64,000 nucleotides of DNA, taken from the NCBI GenBank assembly GCA_020137815.1, contig CM035351.1, positions 62,001 to 126,000 on the forward strand. Direction: 5' to 3'. Made by a program: the position numbers and the translations under genes. The stretch comes from Hormiphora californensis. Taxonomy: Eukaryota; Animalia; Ctenophora. Positions 1 through 64,000 of the stretch are shown here, in pieces (positions within the stretch are counted from its first letter, which is position 1; each line of letters starts with the position of its first letter). The notes beneath the pieces were generated by a model, which saw nothing but the letters and a program-made list of their open reading frames with translations, ran no database searches and was not told the origin of the DNA.

Positions 1-91
1 TCCCCTACCTCTCCCCACTCAGCCCCTACCCCTCCCCACTCAGCCCTCTAGTCCCTCACCCTCTAGTCCCTCACCCCTCATCCCCCCCCAG

Positions 92-1530
92 GTGTCTTAT
101 GTGGGTGACAGGGGTAACAACTAACACCTCATCCCCCTTTAATACTGCAGGTGTCCTATGTGGGTTAGTGTCTGACGGTGTATAAGGTCCAAATGAGGCA
201 CGGAGCTTTTCTGAATCAGCTTTTCAAGACGAATCCAACGCAACCGGAATTAGCTTTCTATCTTATCGGGAAGGTTCGGTTCACTCACACTCATTTTTAG
301 TCATTTTTGCCGCGCGAGCCAATCAGAGGCCAGAATTTCGAAATCCAGCCCTCTGATTGGCTCGCGCGGCCAAAAATGAAAAAAATGAACCACACCTTCC
401 CGATAAGATAGAAAGCTAATTCCGGTTGCATTGGATTCGTCTTGAAAAGCTGATTCAGAATACCTCCGTGCCTCATTTGGACCTTATACACCGTCAGACA
501 CTAATGTGGGTGACAGGGGTAACAACTAACACCTCACCCCCCTTTAATACTGCAGGTGTCCTATGTGGGTGACAGGGGTAACAACTAACACCTCACCCCC
601 CTTTAATACTGCAGGTGTCCTATGTGGGTGACAGGGGTAACAACTAACACCTCACCCCCCTTTAATACTGCAGGTGTCCTATGTGGGTGACAGGGGTAAC
701 AACTAACACCTCACCCCCCTTTAATACTGCAGGTGTCCTATGTGGGTGACAGGGGTAACAACTAACACCTCACCCCCCTTTAATACTGCAGGTGTCCTAT
801 GTGGGTGACAGGGGTAACAACTAACACCTCACCCCCCTTTAATACTGCAGGTGTCCTATGTGGGTGACAGGGGTAACAACTAACACCTCACCCTCCTTTA
901 ATACTGCAGGTGTCCTATGTGGGTGACAGGGGTAACAACTAACACCTCACCCCCCTTTAATACTGCAGGTGTCCTATGTGGGTGACAGGGGTAACAACTA
1001 ACACCTCACCCCCCTTTAATACTGCAGGTGTCCTATGTGGGTGACAGGGGTAACAACTAACACCTCACCCCCCTTTAATACTGCAGGTGTCCTATGTGGG
1101 TGACAGGGGTAACAACTAACACCTCACCCCCCTTTAATACTGCAGGTGTCCTATGTGGGTGACAGGGGTACCAACTAACACCTCACCCCCCTTTAATACT
1201 GCAGGTGTCCTATGTGGGTGACAGGGGTAACAACTAACACCTCACCCCCCTTTAATACTGCAGGTGTCCTATGTGGGTGACAGGGGTAACAACTAACACC
1301 TCATCCCCCTTTAATACTGCAGGTGTCCTATGTGGGTGACAGGGGTAACAACTAACACCTCACCCCCCTTTAATACTGCAGGTGTCCTATGTGGGTGACA
1401 GGGGTAACAACTAACACCTCACCCCCCTTTAATACTGCAGGTGTCCTATGTGGGTGACAGGGGTAACAACTAACACCTCACCCCCCTTTAATACTGCAGG
1501 TGTCCTATGTGGGTGACAGGGGTAACAACT
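92..1530 (+). repeat. 59-bp tandem array (~19 copies) made of the splice acceptor and first ~31 nt of the APBA exon at 1500
   Basis: Unit is ...cctttaatactgcAG|GTGTCCTATGTGGGTGACAGGGGTAACAACTaacacctcacccc; only the last copy continues into the open exon. Confidence 0.95.
166..503. mobile_element. hAT-like MITE (338 bp) inserted in the 59-bp array
   Basis: ~40-bp TIR TAGTGTCTGACGGTGTATAAGGTCCAAATGAGGCACGGAG, with further inverted similarity inside; 8-bp TSD ATGTGGGT at 158-165 and 504-511. Confidence 0.9.
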
Positions 1531-2629
1531 TGGTCGTAATGGTAAAACAATCCCCTGACAGTACTAGAACAACGTGCCACGTGTTCGATTGTCCACGGAG
1601 CCAGGAGGTTAGTGGTATAACAGGAGGAGTAGGATAGATTACTAACTAGTTTTAATATGTCAGGAGAGGTGACTAACTATTAGTTACTAATTGATAATTA
1701 GTTAATTAATATTTCAGGTTAGGGTGGCAATGAACAGGGCCTTTACCCTGTCCTACAAAGATGTGTTGAAGAGGAGTGGTCAGACAGAGGAATCGCTCAT
1801 GCAGTGTGCATACAGCGAGGTCCTTAGCTCCCAGAAACGTGCCCAGGTATAACATGTGTCTCAATATAACGTGACACATGCACTTATTACTGTTAGTCAT
1901 CGGGTGCCGCAAACTTATTTTTGTATCCCCCCTTATCTACCCCCCCCCCCCATCAGGATGATATAGCAGACGTGTTGGATAGTACAAAACACATTACAGT
2001 TAGCATTATAAAGCGGCCCCAGGAGGCACTAGGACTGTCCCTAATCTCATCTGGACCAGGCTCCATTATACCCACAGTGGTAGTGTCTGGACTCAGACCA
2101 GCCTCCCCTGCTTACAAAACTGAACAGCTGAATGTGGGGAACCAGGTGCTAGAGATTAACGGGAGGTCTCTAGTTGGGCTCTCATTCGAGGAAACTATAA
2201 GTTACATCAGATCCCTCATCTCTTCTACTAAAGTAGAAATGCAGGTTAGTTATGTTATCACAGTAGAACTACTTAGTTGAATTCCCCCTTTCCATACCCC
2301 CCCCCCCTTCTAAAACCACTCCCCCACAGGTAGTGCCAGCCTCTCCTGTGCTAGTGATAGAGCTGATAAGACCAGATCTAAAGTACCCCCTGGGATTTAG
2401 CGTCAAGGATGGACACATCACCACTCTAGTGAGAGGCAGTATAGGAGAGAGGGCTGGTATAAGGGTCGGACACCGGATAATAGCGATTAATGGGGAGTCA
2501 ACAGTGACATTAGACCACGATTCAGTGGCAGGCATTCTTCTATCAGAAACAGGAAAACTCGTTCTAAAAACAATGCAGAGTCAGATATTCAATCACATGT
2601 TAGGACTAGAGGACCCTGATTATTTATAG
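1500..2629 (+). CDS. APBA: X11/Mint/LIN-10 adaptor, last four exons (1500-1607, 1718-1846, 1957-2244, 2330-2629): end of PTB domain plus two PDZ domains; 5' part lies outside the window
   Basis: GT-AG exons join in phase 0 and translate VSYVGDRGNNLVVMVK..TCHVFD..VAMNRAFTLSY (PTB), GLSLISSGPGSIIPTVVV..INGRSLVGL (PDZ1) and IRPDLKYPLGFSVKDG..GIRVGHRIIAING..LKTM..EDPDYL (PDZ2 and tail). This is the Mint architecture. Confidence 0.93.
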
Positions 2630-13957: not shown

Positions 13958-16046
<2,089 letters not shown>

Positions 16047-19468: not shown

Positions 19469-19496
19469 GACTCATACGGTCACGGGCCATTCTTAA

Positions 19497-19946
19497 AGGT
19501 TGACAAGATACCTAAAACTTTTCGTATATCGTCTTATTTTGATTTATCATTAATTTTCAGCATTTTTTCAGAATTTTTTGTCGGCTAGAAATATGTGCAA
19601 GATAGGGGGTCTACTGACAAATGAGTGTGCCTTTTTTAAAATTGATAACGTAATATCTCCGGTTCCTGATGAGATACAGAAACCGTTTTGGTAGCGTTGG
19701 AAAGGTCTTATTGAGACCAATCCAACGCAACCAAGATCAAGTTTTTATCTTTTGAGGAACCGGAAACGTGAATTTCAATTTGCGAGACGCAGTGAGTGTG
19801 CCCAGTAAAACCAGTGCTGACAATATCGGTAGACCCCCTATTTCGAATTTTTTTCTAGCCGACAAAAAATTCTGAAAAAATGCTGAAAATTAATGATAAA
19901 TCAAAATAAGACGATATACGAAAAGTTTTAGGTATCTTGTCAACCT
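19497..19946. mobile_element. TTAA-flanked MITE with ~95-bp TIRs starting AGG (Kolobok-like)
   Basis: TTAA at 19493-19496 and 19947-19950; AGGTTGACAAGATACCTAAAAC...GTCGGCTAGAAA inverted at the other end. Confidence 0.88.
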
Positions 19947-20192
19947 TTAAAATAAATTTTACAGTCTGACCAAGATCTGTACATTGTGCAATGTTCATGC
20001 TGTAGCCAAGTCCAACCTAAATGAACAACCTATTGATTTTGAAAATAATAATTTATTGTCTTCATCTCTCTACTCAGAGTCAGTGATCTACATCTGATTT
20101 GCTTTGGTGAGCAGTCCGATTCTTAAAATAGTCCGAGTCCTACTAATCAGTAGGGGGGGGGTGCATTAGTAGTCCTACTAGAACACCTCCTA

Positions 20193-32428: not shown

Positions 32429-32461
<33 letters not shown>

Positions 32462-35400: not shown

Positions 35401-36728
35401 GGGGGGGGAAAAGAACCGGTTTTCCCGAAAAAAGGGGGGGGTTTTTTTTGGGGGGGGGGGGGGCCCCCCCCCCCGGGGGGGGTTTTTTTTTTTTTCCCCC
35501 CGGGCCCCGGGGGGGAAGGGGGGGGGGGGGGGAAAAAAAAAAAAGGGGGGGGGGGGGGCCGGGGGGGAAGGGGTTTTTGGGGGGGGGGGTTGGGGGGGGG
35601 GGGGTTTAATTGGGGAAAGGGGGGGGGGGGGGGGGGAGGGGGGGTTTTTGGGGGGTTAAAACGGGGGGGGGGGGGGGAAAAAAAGGGGGGGGGGGGGGGG
35701 GAAGGGGGGGGGGGGGGGGGAAAAGGGGGGAAAGGGGGGGGGGGGGAGGGGGGGGGGGGGGGGGGGAAAAAAAAGGGGGGGGAAAGGGGGTTTTTAAAAT
35801 TTTTAATTTTTGGTTTTTTTGGGGGGGGGGGGGGCCCCCCGGTTGGGGGGGGGGGGAAAAAAGGGGGGTTTAAAAATTTGGGGGGGGTTTGGGGGGGGGG
35901 GGGGGTTTTAAAAAATTGGGGTTTTTTAAAAAAAAAGGGGGGGGGGGTTTTTTAAAAAAAAGGGGAGGGGGCCCCGGGTTTTTTTTTTGGGGGGGGGAAA
36001 AAAAAAGGGGGTTTTTGGGCTTTTTTTTAAAAGGGGGAAAGGAAAAAAAAAAATTTTTTTGGGGTTTTCCTTTTCGGGGGGCCAATTTTTTTTTCCCCCC
36101 CCCCCCCAAAAAATTTGGGTCCGGGAAAAAAACCTAATTAAAAAAATTTTTAAAAGGGGAAAAAAAAAGGGGGGGTTTTTTTAAAAAGGGGGAAGGGGGG
36201 GGAAAAAGGGGGGGGGGAAATTAAAAAAAAGGGGGGGGGTTTTTTTTAAAAGGGTTTAAAAATTTGGGGGGTTTTTTTTTTTAAAAAAAAAAATTTTTAA
36301 AATTTTTTTTAAAAAAAAAATTTAAAAAAAAAAAATTTTAAAATTTTAATTTTTTTCCCAAACCCAAAAAAATTTTTTTTTAAAACCCATTTCCGGGTTT
36401 CCCAAACCCAAAAAAAATTTTGGGGGGTTCCCCCCAACCCCGGGGGGTTTTCCCCCAAATTTTTTTTAAGGGTTTGGCCCCAACCTTTTTTTCCCTTCCG
36501 GGGGGGGGTTTTGGGGTTTTTTTTAAAAAACCCCCCAAAATTTCTGTTTTTTTTTTTTGGGGGGGAAAAAAAAAAAAAAAAAATTTTTTTAAAAAAAAAA
36601 TTTTTTTAAAAACCCCCCCCAAAAAAAAAAAAAAAAAACCCAAAAAAAAAAAAAAAAAACCAAAAAAAAAAACAAAAAAAAAAAAGGGGGGGGGGGGGGG
36701 TTTGGGGGGGGGGGGGGGGGGGGCCCCC

Positions 36729-36765
<37 letters not shown>

Positions 36766-36845
36766 TTGGGGGGGGTTTTTTGGGGGGGGGGGGGGGGGGG
36801 GGAAAAAAAAAAAAAAACCCAAAAAAAAAAAAAAAAAAACCCCAA
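28030..36845. other. Low-quality, homopolymer-inflated sequence around a scaffold gap (100 N at 30741-30840); not interpretable
   Basis: Long runs of G/C/A/T with no codon or splice structure, worst at 32150-33110 and 35280-36845; typical of untrimmed read ends. Confidence 0.85.
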
Positions 36846-37245
36846 ATTCATACCAACAGGTGGTCCGGGATATAATACTAATTATAAAATGCGTTATGAA
36901 CATGAAATTCTCCCTAGAAAAAGAGAGGAGCCAGGTCGTGGTGGAAATGAAAAAGAAAGGGAGAGGTTGGAGTGGGAATTGTGGTGAAGGGAACTGGAAA
37001 GTTCCATGGAAAGTTTCCTGCGGTTCGAATAAATCTAATAACTCGATAGTTACGGGGTTTCGCGAAAAAATGTTAACATTCTGATAAACACAATTATAAT
37101 ATATTAATATTGCAGATTACCAATAGCGTCTATAAATATAACGGTTTAAAAATCCACTTATCTTGTCTCTCACATTACAATCCTATTATATCTGTTAGAG
37201 TCGGACCCGGATTTACCGGGTCTGACTATATCTCAACAAGTGCAA

Positions 37246-40200: not shown

Positions 40201-43200
40201 TTGGGACTATTATCTACTGCACGTGTTGCAGGAGCAGCCCCTCTAGTAGAGACACCTGGGGATACCGTCCCTGCTGATCTTTGTATCCTCTGAACCTTTC
40301 TCTGTTTCCCAGTAGCTGTGTTTGTCTGTACTCTGCTCTTGGTGTTGACGCTGAACCTGCGGCGATATCTGCATGTTCAGTATTAGCATCATAGTGAACA
40401 ACAGTAGCGGGGGGGGGGGGGGGGAATAACATTCACATTGTAGAGAGGTGAAGAGAAAACTGAACCGGGGAAATATTACCAACACACACACACACACAAA
40501 CTGAAGCAGGAAGGGGCAGGGTACAGGAATGTTAAAGGGAGTATTACCTGGTATTGTCAATGTTAAGAATAACACAGGCAGTCCCATGTTGCAGGTAAGC
40601 AGTTTCTAGTTTACTGCTCTGCTCTGTTCCGTAGTCGCTCCATATATTGTCATCAGTCAGCCACTGCCACACTGGCACCTGCACCTGGTCAGAGAGAGAG
40701 TGGGTGTTAGAGGGGTAGTAGGTGGAGGGGGAGAGGATCTGTCAACCACTGCCACACCGGTACCTGCACCTGGACAGAGAGAGGGGGGTTAGAGGGTGTA
40801 CCTGCACCTAGAGAGACGGTGGGTTAGAGGGAGAGTGGGTTACTGTCAACCACTGCCACACCGGTACCTGCACCTGGAGGAAGAGAGGGGGGGTAAGAGG
40901 GGTAGTAGAGGGGGGTTAGAGGGCAGGTTAGAGGGAGATGGGGTTACTGGGTCAGCTGTGTGGAAGGGAGATCGGTTAGCTGGGTAGACACTGCACCTAC
41001 CTGTACAGTCACACTCTCTTCCCCCGCTGTTTCATATAACACCTACCTGTACAGTCACACTCTCTTCCCCCGCTGTTTCATATAATTTGTTGATTTCATC
41101 GACTGCAGGCATCCAGTTCCCAACGGGGCGGGATGCAGACCTCTTCACGATCTTGTCATAAACCAACTTGAACCTCCCTATCCTCCTGCTGGCTCCACTA
41201 GAGAGAGATTTAACTGTACAGGTCTGGAAGTCAACAAGGTATCCAGGATGGGCTGAATCCGCTCCTTTCATACTCATCCTGCTTTCACCACGCAGGTAGA
41301 TGGCATCAATAACTGGGGGGAGAATTAGAAATGTGAGGTAGGGGGGAGTGGAGAATTAGAAGAGTGTTGCTCCAGTGTTGCCATGGATACAATTAGTAGA
41401 GTTGTGTTTTCAGATTGTCCTGTAAACCACCCCCTGTTTAAAACCCCTGCTGTGTACCGGGAGGATTTGTTTTTAGCCCTACCTTCATTTTGTTTCGGAT
41501 CGTATGGGTACCAGTTATCGTTATCCCCCATCCAATGCCACATGAGAATGTCCTGACTAGAGGACATGACTTCTGGAGAGGGCAGATCGATCCAACCCGA
41601 GGGGAACACCCTGTTATAAACTGCCAACACCTCTTTAGATATTTCGTGAAATATCACATCACGTTCTATGGACATTATCACACGCTTTAACAAACCTAGA
41701 ACAAGAATGAAACAGATTTAGCTAACCTGAAACAGGAATGAAACAGTTCTTATATCACAGACCATTGGTTTTATGATCAGAAGTTTCCCAGTACTTACCG
41801 CTGTATTTCATAACTACACTTTGCAGTATTTGAGCGATCTGGCGGTGAGGTACCTTCCTCCCCTCTGTTAGATGCGGAGAGAGAACAAGACAGTCAACAC
41901 CCTGACTAGCAGCTCCAACGATTAGCAGGGCTATCTTCCTCTTTAGAAGGTGGGCTTCTTCTTTAGTTAGACTGGTACTATCTCTACCTTTCTTTAACTA
42001 AACGGGGGGGGGGGGGCAATTAGTTAGACTCGTACTATCTCTACCTTTCTTTAACTAGGAGAGGGGGGGGGGCAATTAGTGCAAGTAGCAAAAGAGCCAG
42101 ATAAAGTACATTGAGTAACAATTGAAACAGGGGAGATGGTATTGACTATAAAGTACCTTAGGTAGGGGAGTAACAGAGAAGACGTCAAATTACCTTAGGT
42201 AGGGGAGTAACAGAGAAGACGTCAAATTACCTTTGGTAAGGGAGTAACAGAGAAGACGTCGAGATGTTCAGGTTTCTGAAGGAGCATGTAGTTGCGTTGT
42301 TGAGATTCTCTGAACACAGCCACTCCACTGTTAATCTGAACCTCTGTAGGACCTAGCAAACCCAACTTGCCACTCCGCTTGTGGCTCTTTACAGCACTAA
42401 AACAGAGAGGGGAGTTACTACTGGTAGTGTGATACACAACTAATTGATTAATAATCACTCAATTTACAATTAGTCGCTAATTGCTCAGTGTCTCACACTA
42501 TAACTATATCTCCCTTCCCACTCACCCGTCTACATCGTCTACACAAGTGTAGTAGTTGCTACGTCGTATAAACTCTTCCAGCGGCCCAATACCCCCTGTC
42601 CTCCATTCTCCCCCGGGACTATCCGGGTGGGCGGGTACAAATACACCCGGCCGGTACCCACTCCTTTGCAGGTGGAGACACACCTAAATGATAGGGAGGG
42701 AGGCTGTTAGATATAAACTATATAGGGGAGGGAGGCTGTTAGATGGGGGGATGTTTGCTAGATTGTTGCACATATTGGACTATAGCAACTAATTCACCTG
42801 TATCGGGTCTGTATTAATGACATTGATCTCAGTGGACTTGTAACGTGGAAGGGGTGGCTCCTGAAGGACCCCCTTGTCCATTATAACATGTTTGGAGGTC
42901 TTATTGGGCAGGTGGACATGCCCCCCAGTGGTAGGTAGTGTATAATTCCCCCTCGTTACTGCCTCTCTGGTCCCCATCATAACACCCACTAACAGACTCC
43001 TCATCCTCTTTACCTGGTAACAAATAGAGTTCTGGAGTTCAGAGTTAGGAGATAATAGTGAGGGGACACACACGAGACAACAGTGTTGGTAATTTGGGAA
43101 GGTATTATAGGTCCATGGGAAGTATACCTTAGCATTAGCTTTATAGAACTCGAACCAGGTTCTCCATTGTTGGCTATCAACAGCGGACCAATCAGGTGAG

Positions 43201-45850: not shown

Positions 45851-48800
45851 TTATGTGAGAGATGAGTACACACTCTCTACCTCAATTTTCTTTTTTCCTC
45901 CTCCTACTGCAGCACCCTTCTTCCCCTTCTTCCCTCTCTTGCCACCCTGAGCCTGCAATTTCTCCGATTTTATCTGAAACAAAGAGATGATATCATTTTG
46001 ACACACGGTACCACTTAAGTTACAAATCAAGTAACCGGAGTAACTGCATGGAGAACTTACAAAAATCTTCCCGAAGTCAGCTCCTTCATAACGAAGTGGT
46101 TTTGTGTAGTTGGTGCTGTCAACTAATTCCTCCAGGGTGCACTGCATCTCTCCCAAGAAATCTGCCTTGGTAATGTCATCATTGTAATCATCTATATCCC
46201 AGACTTTGAAAATCAGCTCCTGCTCTTCAAATGGGTCATAATCCAGTGTTATAGTTTCCTTGAATTTGGGATTTAGCTCGTTATCGATACACTCTGTTCG
46301 GCCCAGCTGGATAGGAAGAAGGTGGTTAGTAACTTCTTGATTCAAGTTTCCACTGGTTACTAACCCCTCTTATCTTCCCCTTATTGATTGTTGCATGTCA
46401 TAGGGGAGGAGGCACATAGGTCCGATGCTGAGTAATGACAGAACACCTAGGGGTGGATAACCACGAGTCCTAAAAAGACTGGCTGTATTTTATGTACGGT
46501 GGCAAACGTGGGCTAAAGTGTGTAGTGAACCACTGAACATGCACCACTCTGCCTTCTATAGGCTTAGTGGAACAAACCAGTTGTAAATTATGCACTCAGA
46601 GTCCTTCAGTTCAACTCCCATTTTATGTTGTCCTGGCTAACTCTAGAGAGATCCAAATTCCTTGCTAGTGACTCATGTTACTACGGCCACAAATTCGTTA
46701 TAAAATCTCTTCTACCCAGCGCCAGCTGGAAGTGTAGTAGAGTCGGTTCGCCGCCTTTATTTCTAATGCTATGATTGTCTTGTCTGTGGAGTCACGCCTG
46801 CAGACGTAAATGCAGTGAAAGAAAAATAATGATGGAAAGTTTTTATAAGGATATTAGCCAAACGTTCATTGGAACTCTAAACTGTCGTACCTTACGTACA
46901 GTCGAACGGCAAGAGGAGCTGGCTTATAAGTTCTGCAATAGCAAACTTGGTGTACTCGCAATTCAAGAACATCGGATAGTGCATGCACCGGGTGAGGTTA
47001 TACGCATTACTCCGGCTGGGTCAGACTGCATCCTCTTAACATCTACAGCCGAGAGAAACCAGAGAGGGGCTTCAGTGGGGGGCGTGGGGATCGCCATGAG
47101 GGCGGCGGCGTGGAAGCTGATTACGGAGAAGGAGGTTGTTTCACCTCGCATCCTAAAGGTTACGTTTGCAGGAAACCCTCGTTTCACTGTAGTCTCTGTG
47201 TATTCACCAACTGAGGGCTACAGCAGAGATGAAGTAGAGAAGTTTCACCATGACCTAAGGGATTGTATAAACACTATCCCTGCCCACAATCTAGTGGTCG
47301 TGGCGGGAGATTTCAATGCGAAACTCGGCTGGTCGGATTCCCCCTCAGGATGGTACTACCACAAGAGCACTAGCCCTAATGGACTCTGTCTGAAGGAGAC
47401 TCTACGAGAGGCGAATATGGAGGTTGCTAATGTACGTTTTCAGAAACGGAAATGCCGCCTCTGGACACACCTTTCGGACGGTACTCTCAGTAAATCCACC
47501 AAGGACTATATACTAGTGCGTAGGAAATGGCGGAACAGTATCAAGGACGCCGATGTGTCTGAGATATTTAGTTCTCTCGGATCGGACCATAGGGCGGTCA
47601 CTGTTAAACTGAAGCTAACACTGCGGAAACGTAAAACACCCCCGGGGAGGACCTCTTACTGCTACGAAGAGCTGAAATCTAGCCCAGAACTGCAGGAGAG
47701 GTTCTCTGTGGAGGTGCATAACCGCTTCGCAGTGTTAGATTCAGCCATAGAAAACAGGGAAGATGCGACCGAGCGATATGGATGTCTAGTTGAAGCTGTT
47801 GGGCAGACGAGCAAAGCCCTACTGGGGAAGAAGCGAAAGAGGATCAGAGACGTGGTGGCTGATGATTTCAGGGTTAAACGAGCAAGGGAAAATGTGGAGA
47901 CTGCAAGCCAGCAGTACCATTCTGCCCCATCTGAGGAAACCTTGGATAGAATCGGAACCGCGAAGGAGGACTTACAGAATGCGTACCAAAATGTGCACTC
48001 TGAAATTCTGGAGAACAAGATTAGTAAGGTTGAGGTTGCTACTAAGCACGCCAAGACCAGGGAAAGCTGGAGGTTGATCAACGAAATTTCGGGACGACAC
48101 CAGCGAGAGCAAAGTCAGATTGAGGGTGACTCAGCCGATGATAGAGTTGAGATATGGTACAACCATTTCAAGACCCTACTTGGGACACAGGCTGAATCGA
48201 CTGATGGAGATCTGGAAATTCCGGAGATTCACCCTCCTGGCCCAATCGAAGTTGGCCCCTTTACCCGAGACGAGCTGAAGTCAGCGAAGTCTAGACTGAA
48301 GGAAGCCAAGGCGTTTGGGGATGACTCAATCCCTCCAGAAGTACTAAAGAGATGCGATGTAGATGACATTGTACTGGAGTTCTGTAACGGAGCACTAAAT
48401 GGGGAAGGAGTTCCGGATCAGTGGCGTGTAAGCAACCTGATCCCAGTCCCAAAAAAGGGCGACCTTTCAAAACCCGGAAACTACCGTGGGATAGCTCTGA
48501 CTTCGATTGTAGCTAAAACGCTAAATCGGATGATCCTCCACAGAATTAGGCCCCATGTGGAAACTCTGCTCAGTGATAATCAGAACGGGTTCAGGGAAGG
48601 CCGATCCACTACTAATCATGTTCTCACTTTGAGGCGGATTCTTGAAGGTGCGAGGGCAAAGAACCTTCCTGTTGCGATGGTATTTATAGATTTCTGTAAA
48701 GCCTTCGACAGCATCAACAGGAAATCTTTGATGAAGATTCTCAGAGCGTATGGGATCCCAGCACGGATAGTGGACCTTATATCTTGGCTCTACACAAACA

Positions 48801-50014
48801 CAAGGGCAAAGGTCATTACCGCTGATGGAGAATCTGCTCTCTTTGAAATTGTTGCCGGGGTGTTACAGGGCGATACGCTCGCACCCTATTTGTTCATAAT
48901 AGCACTGGACTACTGCATCAGTACGGCACTCTCGAGGCACCCGGAGATTGGTTTCACCATCCAACCAGCACGGGGTACCAGATCTCGACCGATTGAGGCT
49001 CAACGGGTATCGGATACGGAGTTTGCTGACGATCTAGCGCTCCTTGCCGACTCTACTGAACAACTTGGAACTCTGCTCAAGGAGGTGGAAACCGTGTGTG
49101 GCCAAATTGGCCTCCGTTGTAACCTTGGTAAGACAGAATTCCTGACAGAGGGCATCGATAACCCAGGGCAGTTAACATCTCTGTCGGGAGAGAGCATCAA
49201 GAGGGTACAGGACTTCAAGTATCTTGGTAGTTGGATCGCGGACTCCACCCGGGACATTAACACCAGAAAGGCTAAAGCATGGGTGGCATGTCATAAACTC
49301 AAGAAGATCTGGAACTCGAGTCTTAAAGATGAGCTAAAGGTCCGATTGTTTGTGGCATGTGTAGAATCTGTTCTGCTGTACGGCTGTGAGACTTGGACTC
49401 TTACTAGGGACCAAGAGCGTAGTCTAAACGGCACCTACACTCGAATGCTCAGGATGGCACTGAATAAAAACCAGTATCTCCTGAGGATGACCAACTGCGA
49501 GCTGTATGGAGACCTACCGATTCTCAGCACCAAAATAGCAGAGAGACGCCTGAGACATGCTGGCCACGCGTTTAGACACCCAGAGCTAACACTTCACTCA
49601 GTATTGTTATGGGAACCCTCCCACGGTAAAACGAAAAGAGGGAGACCAAACCTTACATTCGTGGACACCATACGAAGAGATACTGGAGTGAAGAGCGTAG
49701 CAGAGATATCCTCAATGATGGCTGGCCGAGATCCTTGGCGAAAACTGACCTACAGCGTTCGAGAATACCACTCGCCTTAAGTCAAGTAAGTCAAGTGGTT
49801 ACTTGGAGACATTTTCAAATAACACGAATCAAGGAGTTGTTTGGTGGTCCTCATCGTTCCACCCTGTCTCACCCCCCCTCCTAAGTTTAAAGGAGGGTTA
49901 GAAAGTTATTACCTCATTATTGAAGGTGTCGAAAACAGTACAGAGAGGATCAGACTTGGAGAATACGTCAGCATCCCTTAGTCCGGTACAAGAAATCGTC
50001 AATTTGACCTTCAT
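45851..50014 (-). CDS. Copine-type C2 domain protein; exons 50014-49913, ~46306-46061, ~45973-45851 (or spliced at 45882)
   Basis: MKVKLTISCTGLRDADVFSKSDPLCTVF..|LGRTECIDNELNPKFKETITLDY..LIFKVWDIDD..DFLGEMQCTLEELV, then a Lys/Gly-rich tail. No second C2 or vWA domain is seen. Confidence 0.8.
46362..49795 (+). mobile_element. Full-length RTE-clade non-LTR retrotransposon, antisense in intron 1 of the C2 gene
   Basis: TSD TGGTTACT at 46354-46361 and 49796-49803; single APE-RT ORF; 3' tail (TAAGTCAAG)x2 directly after the stop. Confidence 0.92.
46775..49780 (+). CDS. RTE ORF, APE endonuclease plus RT (likely ATG ~46829)
   Basis: IGTLNCRTL, IQEHR, AGDFNAKLG, SDHRAV; NYRGIAL, FIDFCKAFDSI, GVLQGDTLAPYLF, EFADDLALL, FKYLGS, VLLYGCETWTL, KRGRP. 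Confidence 0.96.
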   Translation: MSCLWSHACRRKCSERKIMMESFYKDISQTFIGTLNCRTLRTVERQEELAYKFCNSKLGVLAIQEHRIVHAPGEVIRITPAGSDCILLTSTAERNQRGASVGGVGIAMRAAAWKLITEKEVVSPRILKVTFAGNPRFTVVSVYSPTEGYSRDEVEKFHHDLRDCINTIPAHNLVVVAGDFNAKLGWSDSPSGWYYHKSTSPNGLCLKETLREANMEVANVRFQKRKCRLWTHLSDGTLSKSTKDYILVRRKWRNSIKDADVSEIFSSLGSDHRAVTVKLKLTLRKRKTPPGRTSYCYEELKSSPELQERFSVEVHNRFAVLDSAIENREDATERYGCLVEAVGQTSKALLGKKRKRIRDVVADDFRVKRARENVETASQQYHSAPSEETLDRIGTAKEDLQNAYQNVHSEILENKISKVEVATKHAKTRESWRLINEISGRHQREQSQIEGDSADDRVEIWYNHFKTLLGTQAESTDGDLEIPEIHPPGPIEVGPFTRDELKSAKSRLKEAKAFGDDSIPPEVLKRCDVDDIVLEFCNGALNGEGVPDQWRVSNLIPVPKKGDLSKPGNYRGIALTSIVAKTLNRMILHRIRPHVETLLSDNQNGFREGRSTTNHVLTLRRILEGARAKNLPVAMVFIDFCKAFDSINRKSLMKILRAYGIPARIVDLISWLYTNTRAKVITADGESALFEIVAGVLQGDTLAPYLFIIALDYCISTALSRHPEIGFTIQPARGTRSRPIEAQRVSDTEFADDLALLADSTEQLGTLLKEVETVCGQIGLRCNLGKTEFLTEGIDNPGQLTSLSGESIKRVQDFKYLGSWIADSTRDINTRKAKAWVACHKLKKIWNSSLKDELKVRLFVACVESVLLYGCETWTLTRDQERSLNGTYTRMLRMALNKNQYLLRMTNCELYGDLPILSTKIAERRLRHAGHAFRHPELTLHSVLLWEPSHGKTKRGRPNLTFVDTIRRDTGVKSVAEISSMMAGRDPWRKLTYSVREYHSP

Positions 50015-52929: not shown

Positions 52930-53680
52930 CACGGCGTGCCTGGTGAAATTTTAACACGACCTAGCATGCGACGGGAAACCACCACTTGTACGTGGTAGCT
53001 GAGGGTCTTTTCTTGCTTATTTTCACCGTTTTGCCTACTTAAATTTTCTATAAATCAACGATCTGTTATTGGATTGGTATGAAATCTTGGATTTTAGTCG
53101 AAAATTGTCCCATAAACAACTTAAGCATGGTCCCGATTGACCATTTCAATCAGAAGTTTGTCAAAAATGCCAAAATCCAAAAAACAAGAAAATCAAGTTA
53201 CGGTTCTCCTAGTTGGCAGATTTCAACAATTTGCCCAAATCTAACCATAAATTGGATATACACGAAAACTTAGTTCTTGGTAGAAAAATGACCATTTTAA
53301 CGATTGGCACTAGTTTCAAATCCCTATCTCAACGTTTTCAATGGTTTAGGGGCCAAAAACCTCCAAAAAATGGTAAAAAATCAACTTTTGACCATTTTAC
53401 AGTCATTTTAGAGATTCGACTTCAACGGCAATCGATTCTACGTGCAAAAATAGGTAGGGGTGACATATTTCGTGTGCTAAGTCATTATGGATTTTTCGGG
53501 ACCACGTTTAATATAGCCAATTTTGACCCAAATCAAATAAAAGTAAAAAAAACGATTTTAGGGCATGGACTTTTTTTTCCCGCACCGTAGCGCCATTCTG
53601 TAGACCCTCAGCTACCACGTACAAGTGGTGGTTTCCCGTCGCATGCTAGGTCGTGTTAAAGTTTCACCAGGCACGCCGTG
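52930..53680. mobile_element. Non-autonomous DNA transposon with CACGGCGTGCC termini and a 4-bp TSD (Chapaev/CMC-like)
   Basis: ~79-bp TIRs; TSD GAGA at 52926-52929 and 53681-53684. Confidence 0.88.
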
Positions 53681-53780: not shown

Positions 53781-55086
53781 ATGAGGAAACTCTACAGACT
53801 GACGATTGGAGCGGTCTGTTTCTGCTTCGTCTACATTATAGTTGTCACCTCTTACCAGAAGGGTCGCCAGGATCCTGATCACCATATCGACGTACGTTAT
53901 AGTACAGCTTGTACTCAGTAACCCCCCCCCTGATGACGTGTTTGGCTATGGTAACAGTCCCCCCTAGCAACCCCCCCCCCTAGCAACCTCCCCCTAGCAA
54001 CCTCCCACCCCAAGCAACCCCCCCCCCCCTAGCAACCCCCCCCCCCCTGATGACGTGTTTGGCAATGGTAACAGTCCCCTCCCCCTAGCAACCCCCTAGC
54101 AACCCCCCTAGCAACCCCCCCCCTAGCAACCCCCCCCCCCCCCCCACTAGCAACCCCCCAAGCAACCTCCCACCCCTAGCAACCCCCCTAGCAACCTCCC
54201 ACCCCTAGCAACCCCCCTAGCAACCTCCCACCCCTAGCAACCCCCCCTAGCAACCCCCCCCCCCTAGCAACCCCCCTAGCAACCTCCCACCCCTAGCAAC
54301 CCCCCTAGCAACCCCCCCACTAGCAACCCCCCTAGCAACCCCCCTCCCCCCCTCAGATCGAGCAGTTTATAGACCGTCGTGATGAGAGGAGTGGTAATTC
54401 TACTGTGAATTTAGACGGTTCAGATGGCTTTCAAGGCCTTGTGCTACAGAAGGAGGAGAAAGAACCCATGTGTCTTGACCCCATGTTAGCTACATCAAAC
54501 AGCGCTGATATCCAGGTATGACGTCATCTAACTATATCTAATGCAAATTTGCACGGAAATGTGACACCCTATCGTCAATGTGACGACGTGATCCGTCAAT
54601 GTGACGACGTGATCCGTCAGTGTGACGACATGATCCGTCAGTGTGACGACGTGATTCGTAGGTATCACGTATCACACGTGTTGAGAACTGCTTGCGACTT
54701 GAGGGGTCACATCACATGTATAAAAGGGAGAGAAAGAGAGAAAAAGAGAGGGATCACATCACATAGCATATAGCAGACAGGCAGAGAGAAAAACATAGAA
54801 ACAGACCCCTCGATTTGCGATCGGTACGATCGCCCCAGTTTTGCTAGTATATATAATAATAATACCATGACGTAATGACATGACGTCACACTACTCATTG
54901 TGAGAATTATTGGTTATTCAATCAGCGTCAAAAAAATAGTCAGACAGTTGTTTTTATTGAAAACAACCATGTCTGATTATTATTGTAGGGTCTAGTATTC
55001 TGAAAACTTTTCAATCCGCAGGTTTCCACCTTGGTAGAAGAATTATCCTTTGAACTAGAGAATGGAGGTGAGTTGGAGAAGGGTGG

Positions 55087-55158
<72 letters not shown>

Positions 55159-58100
55159 GAGAGAGAGAGAGAGAGGGGGGGAGAGGGTTTTTTAAAGCAT
55201 CTGATTGCAAAAACTGCTAAGGAACAAGGTGTTTATTATAAAGGAACACTATTTAAGTCCCTTTGATCCTCCTTAACATCAGAAGCTGACGTTCTCCATG
55301 TAACAGGATCGGAGAAAACAGCATTCCCAGGACTCCAACCACTCCCATTCTCTGAACCACCCCCCCCCCCCCCCTAGCAACCCCCTAGCAACCCCCATAG
55401 CAACCTCCCAAGCAACCCCTCCTTAACATCAGCAGCTGACGTTCTCCATGTTACAGGATCGGAGAAAACAGCATTCCCAGGACTTCAACCACTCCCATTC
55501 TCTGAGCCACTCCGAGTGTTTCTAGTGCCCCACACACACTGTGACCCAGGTACGGGTGGGAAACACATGTCATTCAATAGTCAATTATAGTCAATGTTGT
55601 GAGAGAAATAAGGGGATATCTTCTCGCACCACACGGTATAATAGAGGCTAGTCACGGCGTGCCCGAGGGTAGTTTAACATTTGTTTGAGTGCACACCTCC
55701 AATTCCGGTTGTAACTGGTCGGGAAGACCTCCCTGAAGGTCGTGGCGGTGCGGGAAAAATAGGGTAGACCTGCTGCGGCTTCAGAAAATTGAGAAAAAGA
55801 TAGCTATCTTTTTTTTCACTTTGAAAATAAGACGTTTTTTATTAAAAGATCCTTGATCAGTGAGATACGGTTGTCCCCCACCTATTTTTTGACGTAGAAT
55901 CGAATGCCGTTGAAGTCAAATCTCTAAAATGTTGGCAAAATGGAGAAAATCACGTTTTTAGGTGTTTTTTGGTGAAAAAAGCGTTCAAACTGGTAGTAGA
56001 TGATGGGATAGAGTCCCAAAAATATCATAAATCGATTTTTTGGGTCTTTTTCGCCCTAGGAAAAGAGTTTCATGAAAATCTGGTACAACGCCTATTCTCC
56101 GTTTGCTTTCAAAGAAGCTGAATATTGCTCTAATTTAGCCAATTTTGAAGAAAAGGCGTCCAAAATGATACCAGTTGACAGGATAGAGTCCCAAAAACGT
56201 GAAAATCATCAATTTTAGGCATTTTATACCCTAGAAACAAATGGACATGGTGGTCGAATGATATTTTTTATCTCGGTAGGCCTCTGAAGTATGTGGAAAT
56301 AGCCACAATGTAGAGATTGTGGTAAATTAATGTGAATAAACGTTTACCAAACCCACTTTAGTGGGCTTCTGGATTATGCAAGAGCCACTCTTCTGGGTTT
56401 GGTAAACGTTTATTCACATTAATTTACCACAATCTCTTCATTGTGGCTATTTCCACATACTTCAGAGGCCTACCGAGATAAAAAATATCATTCGACCACC
56501 ATGTCCATTTGTTTCTAGGGTATAAAATGCCTAAAATTGATGATTTTCACGTTTTTGGGACTCTATCCTGTCAACTGGTATCATTTTGGACGCCTTTTCT
56601 TCAAAATTGGCTAAATTAGAGCAATATTCAGCTTCTTTGAAAGCAAACGGAGAATAGGCGTTGTACCAGATTTTCATGAAACTCTTTTCCTAGGGCGAAA
56701 AAGACCCAAAAAATCGATTTATGATATTTTTGGGACTCTATCACATCATCTACTACCAGTTTGAACGCTTTTTTCACCAAAAAACACCTAAAAACGTGAT
56801 TTTCTCCATTTTGCCAACATTTTAGAGATTTGACTTCAACGGCATTCGATTCTACGTCAAAAAATAGGTGGGGGACAACCGTATCTCACTGATCAAGGAT
56901 CTTTTAATAAAAAACGTCTTATTTTCAAAGTGAAAAAAAAGATAGCTATCTTTTTCTCAATTTTCTGAAGCCGCAGCAGGTCTACCCTATTTTTCCCGCA
57001 CCGCCACGACCTTCAGGGAGGTCTTCCCGACCAGTTACAACCGGAATTGGAGGTGTGCACTCAAACAAATGTTAAACTACCCTCGGGCACGCCGTGTAGT
57101 ATTATATACAAACCATTACAGGAGCTATACTATTATTACTATTTTCTGTAGTAAACAACCAATCAGAACTCGTTATTTAGGTCATGTGACTGGTTATCAG
57201 CCAATCAGGGACCAGTATTTCCACACTATTTTCTGTAGGCTGGTAAACAACCAATCAGAACTCGTTATTTAGGTCACGTGACTGGTTATCAGCCAATCAG
57301 GGACCAGTATTTCCACACTATTTAGGTTGGTTGGAGACGTTTCACTGGTACTACGAGAAAAAAGTGAGATCCATCCTAACGTGGCTGTACATCAAGGCCT
57401 CGGATACACCCGATTTCAAATACATGTATGCTGAGGTAAACCTTACAATTTATCAGTACTCTCCCTCCTCTCGCTAGTGGTATTTGTTCAATGGTCTTCA
57501 CCGTATGGGTACATGATAACATGCAGTTACCATGGTAACACTGCAACTGGTAACATGCAGTTACCATGGTAACACTGCAACTGGTATTATAATGGTTACC
57601 ATGTGGTACTGAAGCTGTAATGATTACAATTTCAGGTGTCCTTCTTCAGTGTTTGGTGGGATGAGCAGGAGGATGATGTGAGGGAGGGGATGAAAAAGTG
57701 AGTTCAATAGAATCAAGATCATGTTTAAAACATTATACACATGTTTTCCTACTGCATAGTACCGTTACATCTTGGTATCGAAGACACCTCACACTCAGGC
57801 CGCTTCGCCACACTCAGGCCGCTTCGCCACACTCAGGCCGCTGCGCCAAACGAAGGCTACGAAGCGGCCGCATCGCGGCCTTCGTTTGGCGCACTTCGCG
57901 CGCCGGTAAGGGAGGGGTAACTTCGTTACCAACGTTATATCTATGATATATATATACGTTGTATATAGGCCCAGAGACGGCAGACGACAGTCACAGAAAT
58001 CTGTATAATCCAGTTAATAAGAACAAATTATAATAGAGATAATATGCAGCATGATGCAGCATGTAGAAACCATAGCTTAGGTGAGGTTTCTACTACGTGG

Positions 58101-59897
58101 TGTGTCGACACGGTCCTTGCACTGTTACTGCAGCCAAGCCATACAGGGCGGCCCAGTCTATCATGTAGAGTTGGGAGGGACAAACTCAGAGCTCAGTCTA
58201 TCATGTAGAGTTGGGAGGGACAAACTCAGAGCCCAGTCTATTATGTAGAGTTGGGAGGGACAAACTCAGAGCCCAGTCTATCATGTAGAGTTGGGAGGGA
58301 CAAACTCAGAGCCCAGTCTATCATGTAGAGTTGGGAGGGACAAACTCAGAGCCCAGTCTATCATGTAGAGTTGGGAGGGACAAACTCAGAGCCCAGTCTA
58401 TCATGTAGAGTTGGGAGGGACAAACTCAGAGCCCAGTCTATTATGTAGAGTTGGGAGGGACAAACTCAGAGCCCAGTCTATCATGTAGAGTTGGGAGGGA
58501 CAAACTCAGAGCCCAGTCTATCATGTAGAGTTGGGAGGGACAAACTCAGAGCCCAGTCTATCATGTAGAGTTGGGAGGGACAAACTCAGAGCCCAGTCTA
58601 TCATGTAGAGTTGGGAGGGACAAACTCAGAGCCCAGTCTATCATGTAGAGTTGGGAGGGACAAACTCAGAGCCCAGTCTATCATGTAGAGTTGGGAGGGA
58701 CAAACTCAGAGCCCAGTCTATCATGTAGAGTTAGGAGGGACAAACTCAGAGCCCAGTCTATCATGTAGAGTTGGGAGGGACAAACTCAGAGCCCAGTCTA
58801 TCATGTAGAGTTGGGAGGGACAAACTCAGAGCCCAGTCTATTATGTAGAGTTGGGAGGGACAAACTCAGAGCCCAGTCTATCATGTAGAGTTGGGAGGGA
58901 CAAACTCAGAGCCCAGTCTATCATGTAGAGTTGGGAGGGACAAACTCAGAGCCCAGTCTATCATGTAGAGTTGGGAGGGACAAACTCAGAGCCCAGTCTA
59001 TCATGTAGAGTTGGGAGGGACAAACTCAGAGCCCAGTCTATCATGTAGAGTTGGGAGGGACAAACTCAGAGCCCAGTCTAGTGTCCTGCACTGGTCTCCA
59101 ACAGAAGTTTCAAAGTGTTTCTCAAAGAGCTGTGTTTAGTAAACACGCGGCTCACATTGTACAGATTTTCCAGTGTGTGTTTTCCGTTCTAATACGTCTA
59201 ACACATGATCATTGATCAAACACTGCTGTTGGCAAGCCCAGCTGCATACTCGGAGTAGTAGTAGTATTGATAAACGTATTCCACACTAGGCTGGCTCTAG
59301 AAGGGAGGTTTGAGTTTGTCCAGGGAGGCTGGGTCCAGACTGACGAGGCAAACACTCACTACTTCGCGATGACCAATGAAATGTTCGATGGACATCAGTG
59401 GCTCAGCGAAAACTTCCCAGGTATAGCAACACTAGCCTCTCCCAGCCACCAGGTATAGCAACACTACTAGTATTACTAGCCACCGCCCTGATCCCCCGGC
59501 CGACAAGCTCAGCTTTTTCCAAAATCTAAAATTGAAAAGTACCGGTGTAATAAATTTCCCGATTTTCAGAGGCTATACCACGGTCTGGTTGGGCTATTGA
59601 CCCGTTTGGACTGTCCCCTGTGATGGCATATGTCAATAAAATCTTCGGTCTCACTGCTATGCACATTCAGGTGATTCCATTAGCTAGATCTAAGAGGTGT
59701 TCCAGGTCCCACTAGAAGGTGTGAAGGGAAACCAGCCCCACACCTGGTTAGACTTCTTTGTGTTAGTTCTTTGTGATATAAATCCACCTCTCTCCCTCTC
59801 TTTAACACACTATTCTTGACTTAGAGAGTCCACTACTCCATAAAGAATCATCTGGCAAAAACTAGAAACCTCGACTTTCGCTGGAGACAATCGTGGG
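53781..59897 (+). CDS. MAN2A: Golgi alpha-mannosidase II (GH38), exons 1-9: 53781-53891, 54357-54515, 55022-55067, 55457-55549, 57326-57435, 57636-57697, 59290-59420, 59570-59670, 59825-59897; continues beyond the window
   Basis: Type II anchor [22 protein letters not shown]; [15 protein letters not shown]|WLETF, YMYAE|[40 protein letters not shown]|RVHYSIK..FRWRQSW. All exon phases are consistent. Confidence 0.93.
53920..54350. repeat. Intronic (CCCCCTAGCAA)n-like minisatellite; shorter tract at 55358-55420
   Basis: Direct reading. Confidence 0.9.
55653..57096. mobile_element. 1444-bp foldback element with ~700-bp near-perfect arms, CACGGCGTGCC termini and a 4-bp TSD
   Basis: Arms ~55653-56354 and ~56394-57096; TSD TAGT at 55649-55652 and 57097-57100. 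Confidence 0.93.
57766..57940. mobile_element. Degenerate MITE with internal 19-bp repeats and a hairpin
   Basis: Imperfect TIR ttggtatcgaag / cttcgttaccaa; (cacactcaggccgcttcgc)x3; gcgccaaacgaaggc..gccttcgtttggcgc. Confidence 0.55.
58151..59080. repeat. 40-bp intronic tandem repeat, ~23 copies
   Basis: Unit GCCCAGTCTATCATGTAGAGTTGGGAGGGACAAACTCAGA. Confidence 0.95.
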
Positions 59898-60149
59898 GTG
59901 AGTGTGAAACAATTTTTGCAAAGTATTAGAACCAGATGGACCTCACATGGTGCAGAATTATCAAGGGGATCCATGGTTAACTGCCAGTCCAATGTTTTCA
60001 CCACAGTGCGAAGAGGACGGTCTTATATGAGACAAAGGGATCCTGTCCAACTGTCCAATGCTCTCATCACACTGTCATGGTTTCTAGGGGTTTACCATGT
60101 ATAAGGTCTACATGGTGCACAAAACCATTGGTTTCTTGCTATAATAATT

Positions 60150-63100
60150 TCCCCATGTTTTCAGATAAGACAGGTATAACGTCTTGCTATAACTCCATAT
60201 TTTCAGATAAGACAGGTATCACTGATATCCACAATAACAATTCCCCCATGTTTTCAGATAAGACAGGCATAACGTCTTACCATAACAAATTCCCCATGTT
60301 TTCAGATAAGACATATTCCCCCATGTTTTCAGATAAGACAGGTATCACAGATATCCACACACATCTTATTTTCAGATAAGACAGGTATCACTGATATCCA
60401 CACACATCTTATTTTCAGATAAGACAGGTATCACTGATATCCACACACATCTTGTTTTCAGATAAGACAGGTATCACTGATATCCACACACATCTTGTTT
60501 TCAGATAAGACAGGTATCACTGATATCCACACACATCTTGTTTTCAGATAAGACAGGTATCACAGATATCCACACACATCTTGTTTTCAGATAAGACAGG
60601 TATCACAGATATCCACACACATCTTGTTTTCAGATAAGACAGGTATCACTGATATCCACACACATCTTGTTTTCAGATAAGACAGGTATCACTGATATCC
60701 ACACACATCTTGTTTTCAGATAAGACAGGTATCACTGATATCCACACACATCTTGTTTTCAGATAAGACAGGTATCACTGATATCCACACACATCTTGTT
60801 TTCAGATAAGACAGGTATCACTGATATCCACACACATCTTGTTTTCAGATAAGACAGGTATCACTGATATCCACACACATCTTGTTTTCAGATAAGACAG
60901 GTATCACTGATATCCACACACATCTTGTTTTCAGATAAGACAGGTATCACTGATATCCACACACATCTTGTTTTCAGATAAGACAGGTATCACTGATATC
61001 CACACACATCTTGTTTTCAGATAAGACAGGTATCACTGATATCCACACACATCTTGTTTTCAGATAAGACAGGTATCACTGATATCCACACACATCTTGT
61101 TTTCAGATAAGACAGGTATCACTGATATCCACACACATCTTGTTTTCAGATAAGACAGGTATCACTGATATCCACACACATCTTGTTTTCAGATAAGACA
61201 GGTATCACTGATATCCACACACATCTTGTTTTCAGATAAGACAGGTATCACTGATATCCACACACATCTTGTTTTCAGATAAGACAGGTATCACTGATAT
61301 CCACACACATCTTGTTTTCAGATAAGACAGGTATCACTGATATCCACACACATCTTGTTTTCAGATAAGACAGGTATCACTGATATCCACACACATCTTG
61401 TTTTCAGATAAGACAGGTATCACTGATATCCACACACATCTTGTTTTCAGATAAGACAGGTATCACTGATATCCACACACATCTTGTTTTCAGATAAGAC
61501 AGGTATCACTGATATCCACACACATCTTGTTTTCAGATAAGACAGGTATCACTGATATCCACACACATCTTGTTTTCAGATAAGACAGGTATCACTGATA
61601 TCCACACACATCTTGTTTTCAGATAAGACAGGTATCACTGATATCCACACACATCTTGTTTTCAGATAAGACAGGTATCACTGATATCCACACACATCTT
61701 GTTTTCAGATAAGACAGGTATCACTGATATCCACACACATCATTGTTTTCAGATAAGACAGGTATCACTGATATCCACACACATCTTGTTTTCAGATAAG
61801 ACAGGTATCACTGATATCCACACACATCTTGTTTTCAGATAAGACAGGTATCACTGATATCCACACACATCTTGTTTTCAGATAAGACAGGTATCACTGA
61901 TATCCACACACATCTTGTTTTCAGATAAGACAGGTATCACTGATATCCACACACATCTTGTTTTCAGATAAGACAGGTATCACTGATATCCACACACATC
62001 TTGTTTTCAGATAAGACAGGTATCACTGATATCCACACACATCTTGTTTTCAGATAAGACAGGTATCACTGATATCCACACACATCTTGTTTTCAGATAA
62101 GACAGGTATCACTGATATCCACACACATCTTGTTTTCAGATAAGACAGGTATCACTGATATCCACACACATCTTGTTTTCAGATAAGACAGGTATCACTG
62201 ATATCCACACACATCTTGTTTTCAGATAAGACAGGTATCACTGATATCCACAATAACAATTTCCTGTTTTCAGATAAGACAGGTATCACTGATATCCACA
62301 CACATCTTGTTTTCAGATAAGACAGGTATCACTGATATCCACACACATCTTGTTTTCAGATAAGACAGGTATCACTGATATCCACACACATCTTGTTTTC
62401 AGATAAGACAGGTATCACTGATATCCACACACATCTTGTTTTCAGATAAGACAGGTATCACTGATATCCACACACATCTTGTTTTCAGATAAGACAGGTA
62501 TCACTGATATCCACACACATCTTGTTTTCAGATAAGACAGGTATCACTGATATCCACACACATCTTGTTTTCAGATAAGACAGGTATCACTGATATCCAC
62601 ACACATCTTGTTTTCAGATAAGACAGGTATCACTGATATCCACACACATCTTGTTTTCAGATAAGACAGGTATCACTGATATCCACACACATCTTGTTTT
62701 CAGATAAGACAGGTATCACTGATATCCACACACATCTTGTTTTCAGATAAGACAGGTATCACTGATATCCACACACATCTTGTTTTCAGATAAGACAGGT
62801 ATCACTGATATCCACACACATCTTGTTTTCAGATAAGACAGGTATCACTGATATCCACACACATCTTGTTTTCAGATAAGACAGGTATCACTGATATCCA
62901 CACACATCTTGTTTTCAGATAAGACAGGTATCACTGATATCCACACACATCTTGTTTTCAGATAAGACAGGTATCACATGATATCCACACATCTTGTTTT
63001 CAGATAAGACAGGTATCACTGATATCCACACACATCTTGTTTTCAGATAAGACAGGTATCACTGATATCCACACACATCTTGTTTTCAGATAAGACAGGT

Positions 63101-64000
63101 ATCACTGATATCCACACACATCTTGTTTTCAGATAAGACAGGTATCACTGATATCCACACACATCTTGTTTTCAGATAAGACAGGTATCACTGATATCCA
63201 CACACATCTTGTTTTCAGATAAGACAGGTATCACTGATATCCACACACATCTTGTTTTCAGATAAGACAGGTATCACTGATATCCACACACATCTTGTTT
63301 TCAGATAAGACAGGTATCACTGATATCCACACACATCTTGTTTTCAGATAAGACAGGTATCACTGATATCCACACACATCTTGTTTTCAGATAAGACAGG
63401 TATCACTGATATCCACACACATCTTGTTTTCAGATAAGACAGGTATCACTGATATCCACACACATCTTGTTTTCAGATAAGACAGGTATCACTGATATCC
63501 ACACACATCTTGTTTTCAGATAAGACAGGTATCACTGATATCCACACACATCTTGTTTTCAGATAAGACAGGTATCACTGATATCCACACACATCTTGTT
63601 TTCAGATAAGACAGGTATCACTGATATCCACACACATCTTGTTTTCAGATAAGACAGGTATCACTGATATCCACACACATCTTGTTTTCAGATAAGACAG
63701 GTATCACTGATATCCACACACATCTTGTTTTCAGATAAGACAGGTATCACTGATATCCACACACATCTTGTTTTCAGATAAGACAGGTATCACTGATATC
63801 CACACACATCTTGTTTTCAGATAAGACAGGTATCACTGATATCCACACACATCTTGTTTTCAGATAAGACAGGTATCACTGATATCCACACACATCTTGT
63901 TTTCAGATAAGACAGGTATCACTGATATCCACACACATCTTGTTTTCAGATAAGACAGGTATCACTGATATCCACACACATCTTGTTTTCAGATAAGACA
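60150..64000 (+). repeat. 43-bp tandem array (~90 copies, running off the window) made of the acceptor and the start of the next MAN2A exon
   Basis: Unit cacacacatcttgttttcAG|ATAAGACAGGTATCACTGATATC; joined to the phase-1 donor at 59897 it reads WRQSW-D-KTGITDI, the expected continuation of mannosidase II. Confidence 0.9.

Follow-up and report, generated by a model that had tools for sequence, protein, structure and literature searches.

The window analysed here, a 64,000-nt stretch of Hormiphora californensis DNA, ends within a tandem repeat of which every regular unit carries a 3' splice site, and the locus raises the question of whether such an array gave its gene a new intron or lengthened an old one. 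The first-pass annotation, made from the letters alone, had favoured a new intron reached through a 9-nt microexon. We consider it about three in four probable that the array arose when an existing 3' splice site and 34 exon nucleotides were amplified in tandem, that the last copy is likely the one spliced, and that an old intron was thereby lengthened. The locus comprises four features:

54357..59897 (+): upstream exons of a GH38 alpha-mannosidase II-like gene; 8 exons, all GT-AG, in a single open frame.
59898..63992 (+): ancestral phase-1 intron holding the array; 4,095 nt or more, measured to the last acceptor in view.
60134..60332 (+): edge of the array; first acceptor (exon-like from 60165) plus 4 copies off the regular period (42, 51, 48 and 27 nt), their intron parts varied and their codon variants synonymous.
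60324..64000 (+): homogeneous array of 43-nt units, 85 or more of them; acceptor and exon start, internal AG|GT at +8 to +11, TAA on read-through.

The array was called by TRF at 60324-64000 (period 43, 85.4 copies, 99% matches), with a degenerate edge at 60134-60313. The repeat continues past the window end, so the copy number is a lower bound, and the 85-fold expansion of one version described in the first pass stands as a minimum. There were 90 acceptor copies, the first at 60165 and the last at 63993; 78/89 complete units were identical and 82/89 were 43 nt long, copies 1-6 being irregular. The unit is composed of 9 nt of intron end with the acceptor AG and 34 nt of exon start encoding DKTGITDIHTHL, and its coding content (D-KTGITDIHTHL) extends four residues beyond DKTGITDI. 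A YTRAY branch-like motif lies 25 nt before the next AG in each unit. The annotated internal AG|GT was located at unit positions 8-11, and reading through from a regular copy does reach the annotated TAA, after 15 codons. The first 20 nt of the unit had no other occurrence in the window on either strand.

The edge copies encode DKTGIT synonymously, as first described: GGT ATA ACG in copy 1, GGT ATC ACT in copy 2, GGC ATA ACG in copy 3 and GGT ATC ACA in copy 5, the last of which recurs in copies 10, 11 and 66. In the first 17 exon nucleotides, all four unique substitutions were synonymous, where 13/51 possible changes would be (P = 0.004; 0.027 when drift of the real exon is allowed for); copy 4 was excluded from this count as a breakpoint falls within its 17 nt, and the ATA/ACG variants adjoin a breakpoint. 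Synonymy was thus borne out beyond chance, and it generalises to other junction duplicates (below). As to the age attributed to them, these variants probably represent other alleles rather than ancestral states.

Short-read contigs of run X1 showed 0 differences from the window at 60244-60344 (edge copies 3-5). X1 is possibly the sample behind the window, and its match guards against misassembly only; in that sense an assembly artefact was ruled out for the edge and for the duplicates at 40530-41069, where X1 contigs also matched with 0 differences. The 43-nt unit was covered by contigs from two DNA studies. Summed contig depth over the unit, relative to its flanks, differed about six-fold between X1 and X5, and in the opposite direction at 40746-40772, depth not being equivalent to copy number. 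Run X8 yielded no contigs for this locus or for 40530-41320, and the seawater run X7 none for the latter, results that carry no information. Run X5 had a different array edge from the window, and the length of its 43-nt array is unreadable from contigs. Within the array's intron, 59980-60060 stood out in both DNA runs by a very high summed contig depth and numerous loose ends and is likely a dispersed repeat.

The host gene was identified as a GH38 alpha-mannosidase by its Glyco_hydro_38N domain (Pfam matches in 2/5 exons tested, E 3.4e-10 and 4.4e-5) and its mannosidase II homology; it matches solved mannosidase structures, and its C-terminal part lies outside the window. The eight exons (54357-54515, 55022-55067, 55457-55549, 57326-57435, 57636-57697, 59290-59420, 59570-59670 and 59825-59897) form an open frame that ends in FRWRQSW before the array's intron. 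The closest proteins were from ctenophores (150/199 residues identical in Mnemiopsis, 75%, and 143/199 in Bolinopsis). Homologues read RWRQSWD-SEGVTDMLTHLGPFVSYGQQHSCGPDP across the junction, and the unit frame DKTGITDIHTHL aligns with them without gaps (D..G.TDMLTHL in the ctenophore proteins). The array was therefore born from a splice junction, as the first-pass annotation had claimed, its unit being the acceptor and exon start of the GH38 gene: the tandem unit lies across an intron/exon boundary of its host gene, keeps the frame of the upstream exon and aligns to homologues, and a homogenised core is accompanied by divergent edge copies. A protein search with a GH38 exon returned nothing above 84% identity (15 matches from 17 candidates), and hence no annotated continuation. 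Diverged GH38-like copies, with exons about 10-16% different, were present in runs X1 and X5. A 40-nt, 23-copy minisatellite at 58151-59080 lies entirely within a GH38 intron, off the junctions, and was treated as background. Elements bounded by inverted repeats (DNA-transposon-like, by eye) were seen at 55610-57100, inside a GH38 intron, and at 52930-53680 and 19200-19950.

Introns of the window have a median length of 189 nt (n=39). A metagenome locus with a ctenophore-like GH38 gene, L004, has an intron of 244 nt at the same codon position as the array's intron (W, then G|AT), and introns are present in L004 at both positions flanking the 73-nt exon. The 244-nt intron is followed by an 86-nt exon in one piece (DSSGETDILTELGAFSGYNSQYTCGPDPD), which has no intron at +9. 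By this comparison the array's intron is ancestral, being present at the equal position in a relative; an intron at +9 would count as new, given that the L004 exon is uninterrupted there. These comparisons cover 6/39 metagenome loci, among which L004 was the sole ctenophore-like one and none was this gene. In X5, a diverged copy is represented by a 602-nt contig that carries both the upstream exon and 41 nt of acceptor and exon start, which would leave the intron about 210 nt at most.

Splice sites were scored with a matrix built from the window's own 42 acceptors and 40 donors. The main acceptor of the unit is ordinary (43rd percentile of 42). Its internal AG scored -3.4 (-1.4 to -4.2), while the minimum of the other 42 acceptors was 2.2, and none of them (0/42) has a second AG within 9 nt upstream; by sequence scoring, the duplicated AG would not be a usable acceptor. 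As a donor, the internal GT is passable (18th-40th percentile of 40). A contig from a seawater run, X7, which we guess to be RNA, exactly skips the GT..AG intron 59671-59824, has 0 differences over 59823-59897, and continues after 59897 with 13 nt matching the unit start, without a repeated 9-mer. This is one contig only, at a depth of 3.4, and the environmental sample it comes from could carry a shorter allele; the 13 nt fit copy 1 and regular copies equally. The continuation is compatible with the microexon and the ordinary route alike. An in-frame DKT insertion, expected if the microexon were spliced to the main acceptor, was absent from this one RNA contig. The cDNA check suggested in the first pass cannot tell the microexon route from the ordinary one: its synonymous markers fall downstream of the AG|GT, and the transcript is identical both ways.

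Three other readings of the array have to be weighed against lengthening of an old intron. The proposed intron gain would splice to the first acceptor, leave a 9-nt microexon, and use the internal GT as donor and the last internal AG as acceptor of a new intron. Its geometry does restore the reading frame, its donor looks usable (18th-40th percentile of 40), and elsewhere a duplicated AG|GT was spliced in cells at 6-16% (PMC3265369, as far as the accessible part of that report goes) and human UBC employs dual-specific AGGT sites that lie in tandem repeats (PMC10809524, likewise in part). We nevertheless regard it as very improbable: the internal AG scores under each of the 42 other acceptors and has a normal one 9 nt ahead of it, the shortest annotated exon in the window is 46 nt, and the intron already exists in L004, where the next exon is one 86-nt piece. 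Splicing from the donor at 59897 to the last ordinary acceptor would yield the same mRNA with no new intron, and with an ancestral intron the microexon model becomes unnecessary. A crippled allele or gene copy, in which upstream acceptors are used, transcripts meet the TAA and diverged GH38 copies cover the loss, is unlikely, though less so than intron gain. Reading on from any upstream acceptor meets a stop within 15-71 codons, X1 and X5 do contain diverged GH38-like copies (exon difference about 10-16%), and the exit of the array lies beyond the window; against this, the eight upstream exons are open with 75% identity to the Mnemiopsis protein, contigs of two DNA studies cover the unit, the spliced contig has 0 differences over 59823-59897, and 12 other junction duplicates sit within open-frame genes.

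The third reading concerns the edge. Copies 1-4 (60165-60332) have lengths divisible by three (42, 51, 48 and 27 nt) and are stop-free, giving 71 open codons from the first acceptor, possibly by chance; they could once have been an in-frame coding insertion read from that acceptor, which would account for silent-only differences. We hold this to be as improbable as the microexon. The observation is post hoc and the copies are related by descent, best repeat offsets were divisible by three in 3/13 cases only (51, 150 and 516, the last equal to 12 units of 43), homologues have no insertion here, and the X5 edge is different.

Lengthening of an old intron, the reading that we prefer, would have begun with a short duplication spanning the junction, in which a 2-nt TG microhomology likely formed the join; the TG would fit the glycine expected as the next residue, homologues continuing HL-G. 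More copies would have been added, likely by unequal exchange between homologous chromosomes, the spare copies carrying silent differences of alleles that were functional until capture, and one 43-nt version may then have expanded inside the array. The last acceptor is likely the one chosen, since it alone would have the next donor as its nearest partner; choice of an upstream acceptor would lead to TAA and presumably to removal by nonsense-mediated decay. The true exon start is accordingly predicted to be the last copy, past the window end. Use of the last acceptor is supported by the 12 other junction duplicates of the window, in which the real site is on the exon side. The short introns of the window (median 189 nt) count against it, as pairing across the intron would favour the first acceptor. 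We propose no function for the array.

Junction duplicates were next sought across the whole window. Exons were annotated by hand (10/19 segments tested matched a fitting Pfam family, with E up to 0.05), and 83 junctions with frame support were kept, the array's own included, while 18 exon ends were dropped. A duplicate was defined as a local, ungapped match of at least 16 nt and at least 85% identity spanning the junction. Large inserted elements were masked by hand before counting, and 28100-36900 was excluded from all counts. This region is homopolymer-rich and of low quality around a 100-N gap (30741-30840) and is likely unpolished long-read sequence. Two LINE-like elements with long open frames and, by eye, endonuclease and reverse-transcriptase motifs were found at 5560-10615 and 46800-49775, both intronic and on the strand opposite to their host gene. 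Three arrays or duplicates are needed for what follows:

89..1607 (+): control; 59-nt acceptor and exon-start array in another gene, 17.4 copies at 504-1530, the last entering the PTB-domain exon 1500-1607.
55267..55510 (+): second acceptor duplicate in the same GH38 gene; spare copy from 55307, real exon from 55457, exon differences 2/2 synonymous.
59416..59466 (+): donor duplicate in the same GH38 gene; second copy missing from an X5 contig.

A local duplicate was present at 13/83 junctions in the window (6 acceptors and 7 donors). The extra copies were always on the intron side, upstream in 6/6 acceptor cases and downstream in 7/7 donor cases, the exon-side location of the real sites being partly built into the annotation. 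Per boundary, duplicates were 6.0 times as frequent at junctions as in introns and 8.7 times as frequent as in non-genic sequence; per event, 13 were observed against 7.1 expected (P 0.004, or 0.12 if intron-only repeats fade twice as fast). These figures suggest, rather than establish, an enrichment of duplicates at junctions in the window. In the control, the last copy of the 59-nt array continues into the PTB exon, in frame with two PDZ exons. X5 contigs lacked two of the window's duplicates (59451-59537 replaced, 40973-41038 skipped), indicating that copies come and go between individuals.

Several of the affected genes deserve description. The second copy of the 59-nt array contains a 340-nt MITE-like element at 166-503, with long terminal inverted repeats by eye. 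One gene with RAMA and JAB domains, presumably MPND-like, has four junction duplicates at 10917-13595 (-). Directly upstream of it, three closely packed same-strand genes at 13950-18165 (-), which we take to encode an AAA-ATPase, an ABT1-like and a LENG1-like protein, include some with an acceptor AG immediately before the ATG, which is compatible with trans-splicing. At 40652-42260 (-), a gene with C2, microbial-type PARG-like and several WWE segments (Pfam) has duplicates at five of its exon ends. Within 21144-21699 (-), an acceptor duplicate and a donor duplicate fall in a multi-exon membrane-protein gene, GPCR-like by eye, in which one junction breaks the frame, possibly through assembly errors.

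Spare copies were compared with their real exons at 16 junctions (the 13 plus 3 found by eye, 3 being without a qualifying copy), with alignments extended from the junction in a codon-blind manner; for the 43-nt array the majority unit was substituted for the real exon, which lies outside the window. Unique substitutions were synonymous in 20/25 cases (80%). Decay alone would give a fraction of 0.23-0.28, and decay with silent drift of the real exon 0.37-0.44; the P values range from 2e-9 to 3e-4, and 6/9 arrays were all-silent against 0.6-1.6 expected. Three of the five non-synonymous changes come from a single weak 18-nt alignment. In a GH38 gene of another animal (locus L035, 2661-2950), a 145-nt acceptor and exon-start duplicate had 5/5 exon differences synonymous, a count that excludes one intron difference and two breakpoint codons.

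Alleles of another sample differ enough from the window to be a possible source of such a bias. Over two exons, X5, from the other study, and the window differed at 11 listed sites, and every one of these was synonymous (0.154 per silent site). This allelic distance, about 15% of silent sites, would suffice for the silent bias if copies came from unequal exchange between alleles: it predicts about 16.5 silent differences over 472 nt, and 19 were observed outside the 43-nt array. The X5 contig over the real exon 40548-40684 had 6 differences, 2 of them at listed positions; the sites of the four variants of the window's spare copy lie 6-27 nt from the end of that contig, beyond the listed positions, which would fit allele capture and was not counted. 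In the contigs compared, none of the spare-copy variants turned up directly in the real exon of another individual. A diverged allele was not the source of every copy, since the duplicate at 40993-41085 is identical to the window exon over 39 nt although X5 differs within it (41083).

Alternatively, the bias could arise from copies made within one chromosome, either as older exon versions or because amino-acid changes were purged by occasional conversion or replacement of the real exon edge. The long arrays are homogeneous (78/89 units identical) and several copies equal the real exon, as such an origin would have it, yet an older version plus decay expects 37-44% silent changes where 80% were observed (P 1e-5 to 3e-4), and the donor array at 12931-13250 (-) holds, in three copies, three different silent haplotypes with different intron parts. 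We judge within-chromosome origin rather unlikely, and lean slightly towards allele capture as the likeliest source of the founding and edge copies, followed by later expansion inside the array. A more general form of allele capture, which we advance tentatively and with somewhat less confidence, is that mirages, as repeats of this kind are called, are an archive of alleles: in animals of high heterozygosity, recombination between homologues would pair in the conserved exon, slip at its edge, where the introns diverge, and time and again drop the edge of another working allele into the intron. If true, this would explain why spare copies resemble sequence under coding selection without being coding, why roughly one junction in six has a copy in this ctenophore and why copies turn over between individuals, and it would imply strict exon-side splice choice in an early-branching animal with short introns, across at least 89 decoy acceptors. 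In practice, gene prediction can be misled by spare junction copies, and coding function should not be read from their dN/dS-like signals. The roughly 90 near-identical complete acceptors are also a natural test of 3' splice site choice in ctenophores.

The 43-nt array is a mirage, a repeat type known from amphioxus, a highly polymorphic animal, and from human F7. The available portions of the amphioxus reports describe mirages in Adh3, the globins BflGb6 and BflGb9, troponin C and PGBD5, one of them calling their origin unclear (PMC3087553; PMC3902484); normal splicing is reportedly undisturbed there and in the human F7 VNTR (PMC3087553; PMC3902484; PMC1557585, each in part). Hormiphora has a SNP heterozygosity of 2%, and no such repeats are mentioned in the accessible part of that report (PMC8527503). 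A literature search, over sources available in part, returned no ctenophore mirage and no silent-site analysis of mirages; the BflGb6 alignments (PMC3087553 supplements) could bear on the latter.

Intron gain by tandem duplication of AG|GT is documented for ATP2A1 (PMC3265369), and dual-specific sites for UBC and VCX3A (PMC10809524). The accessible text of both describes a tandem unit with AG|GT like ours. There, however, the duplication is within an exon and the AG|GT is needed for rescue of the frame, whereas the ctenophore unit brings a complete acceptor and sits in a pre-existing intron. Human junction minisatellites include the 37-bp VNTR of F7 IVS7 and those of 6-16, CBS, LMNB2 and PDGF (PMC1557585, in its available part). 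As in the ctenophore, identical splice sites are reiterated in the F7 intron, and F7 uses the exon-proximal one (PMC1557585, same part). The human group consists of donor arrays and is explained by 5'-to-3' scanning (PMC1557585, same part), but scanning from the 5' side fails to explain an acceptor array, in which the used site would be the last one made.

The closest likeness is to amphioxus, as far as the parts of those accounts at hand describe it: minisatellite-like tandem duplication of an intron/exon boundary, a BflGb6 unit made of an intron's 3' end with an exon's 5' part, clusters with a homogenised centre and divergent edges, and both donor and acceptor cases. The amphioxus arrays also differ in length between haplotypes, which the different edge of X5 may parallel. 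The ctenophore case differs in scale, with at least 89 spare acceptors compared to 3-6 units in BflGb6 (by the same partial accounts), and in density, with 13/83 junctions affected in one window. It also differs in the silent-site bias reported here for its spare copies, which does not feature in the accessible parts of the amphioxus accounts (PMC3087553; PMC3902484) and which provides a countable signature for distinguishing capture from other alleles from plain duplication and decay.
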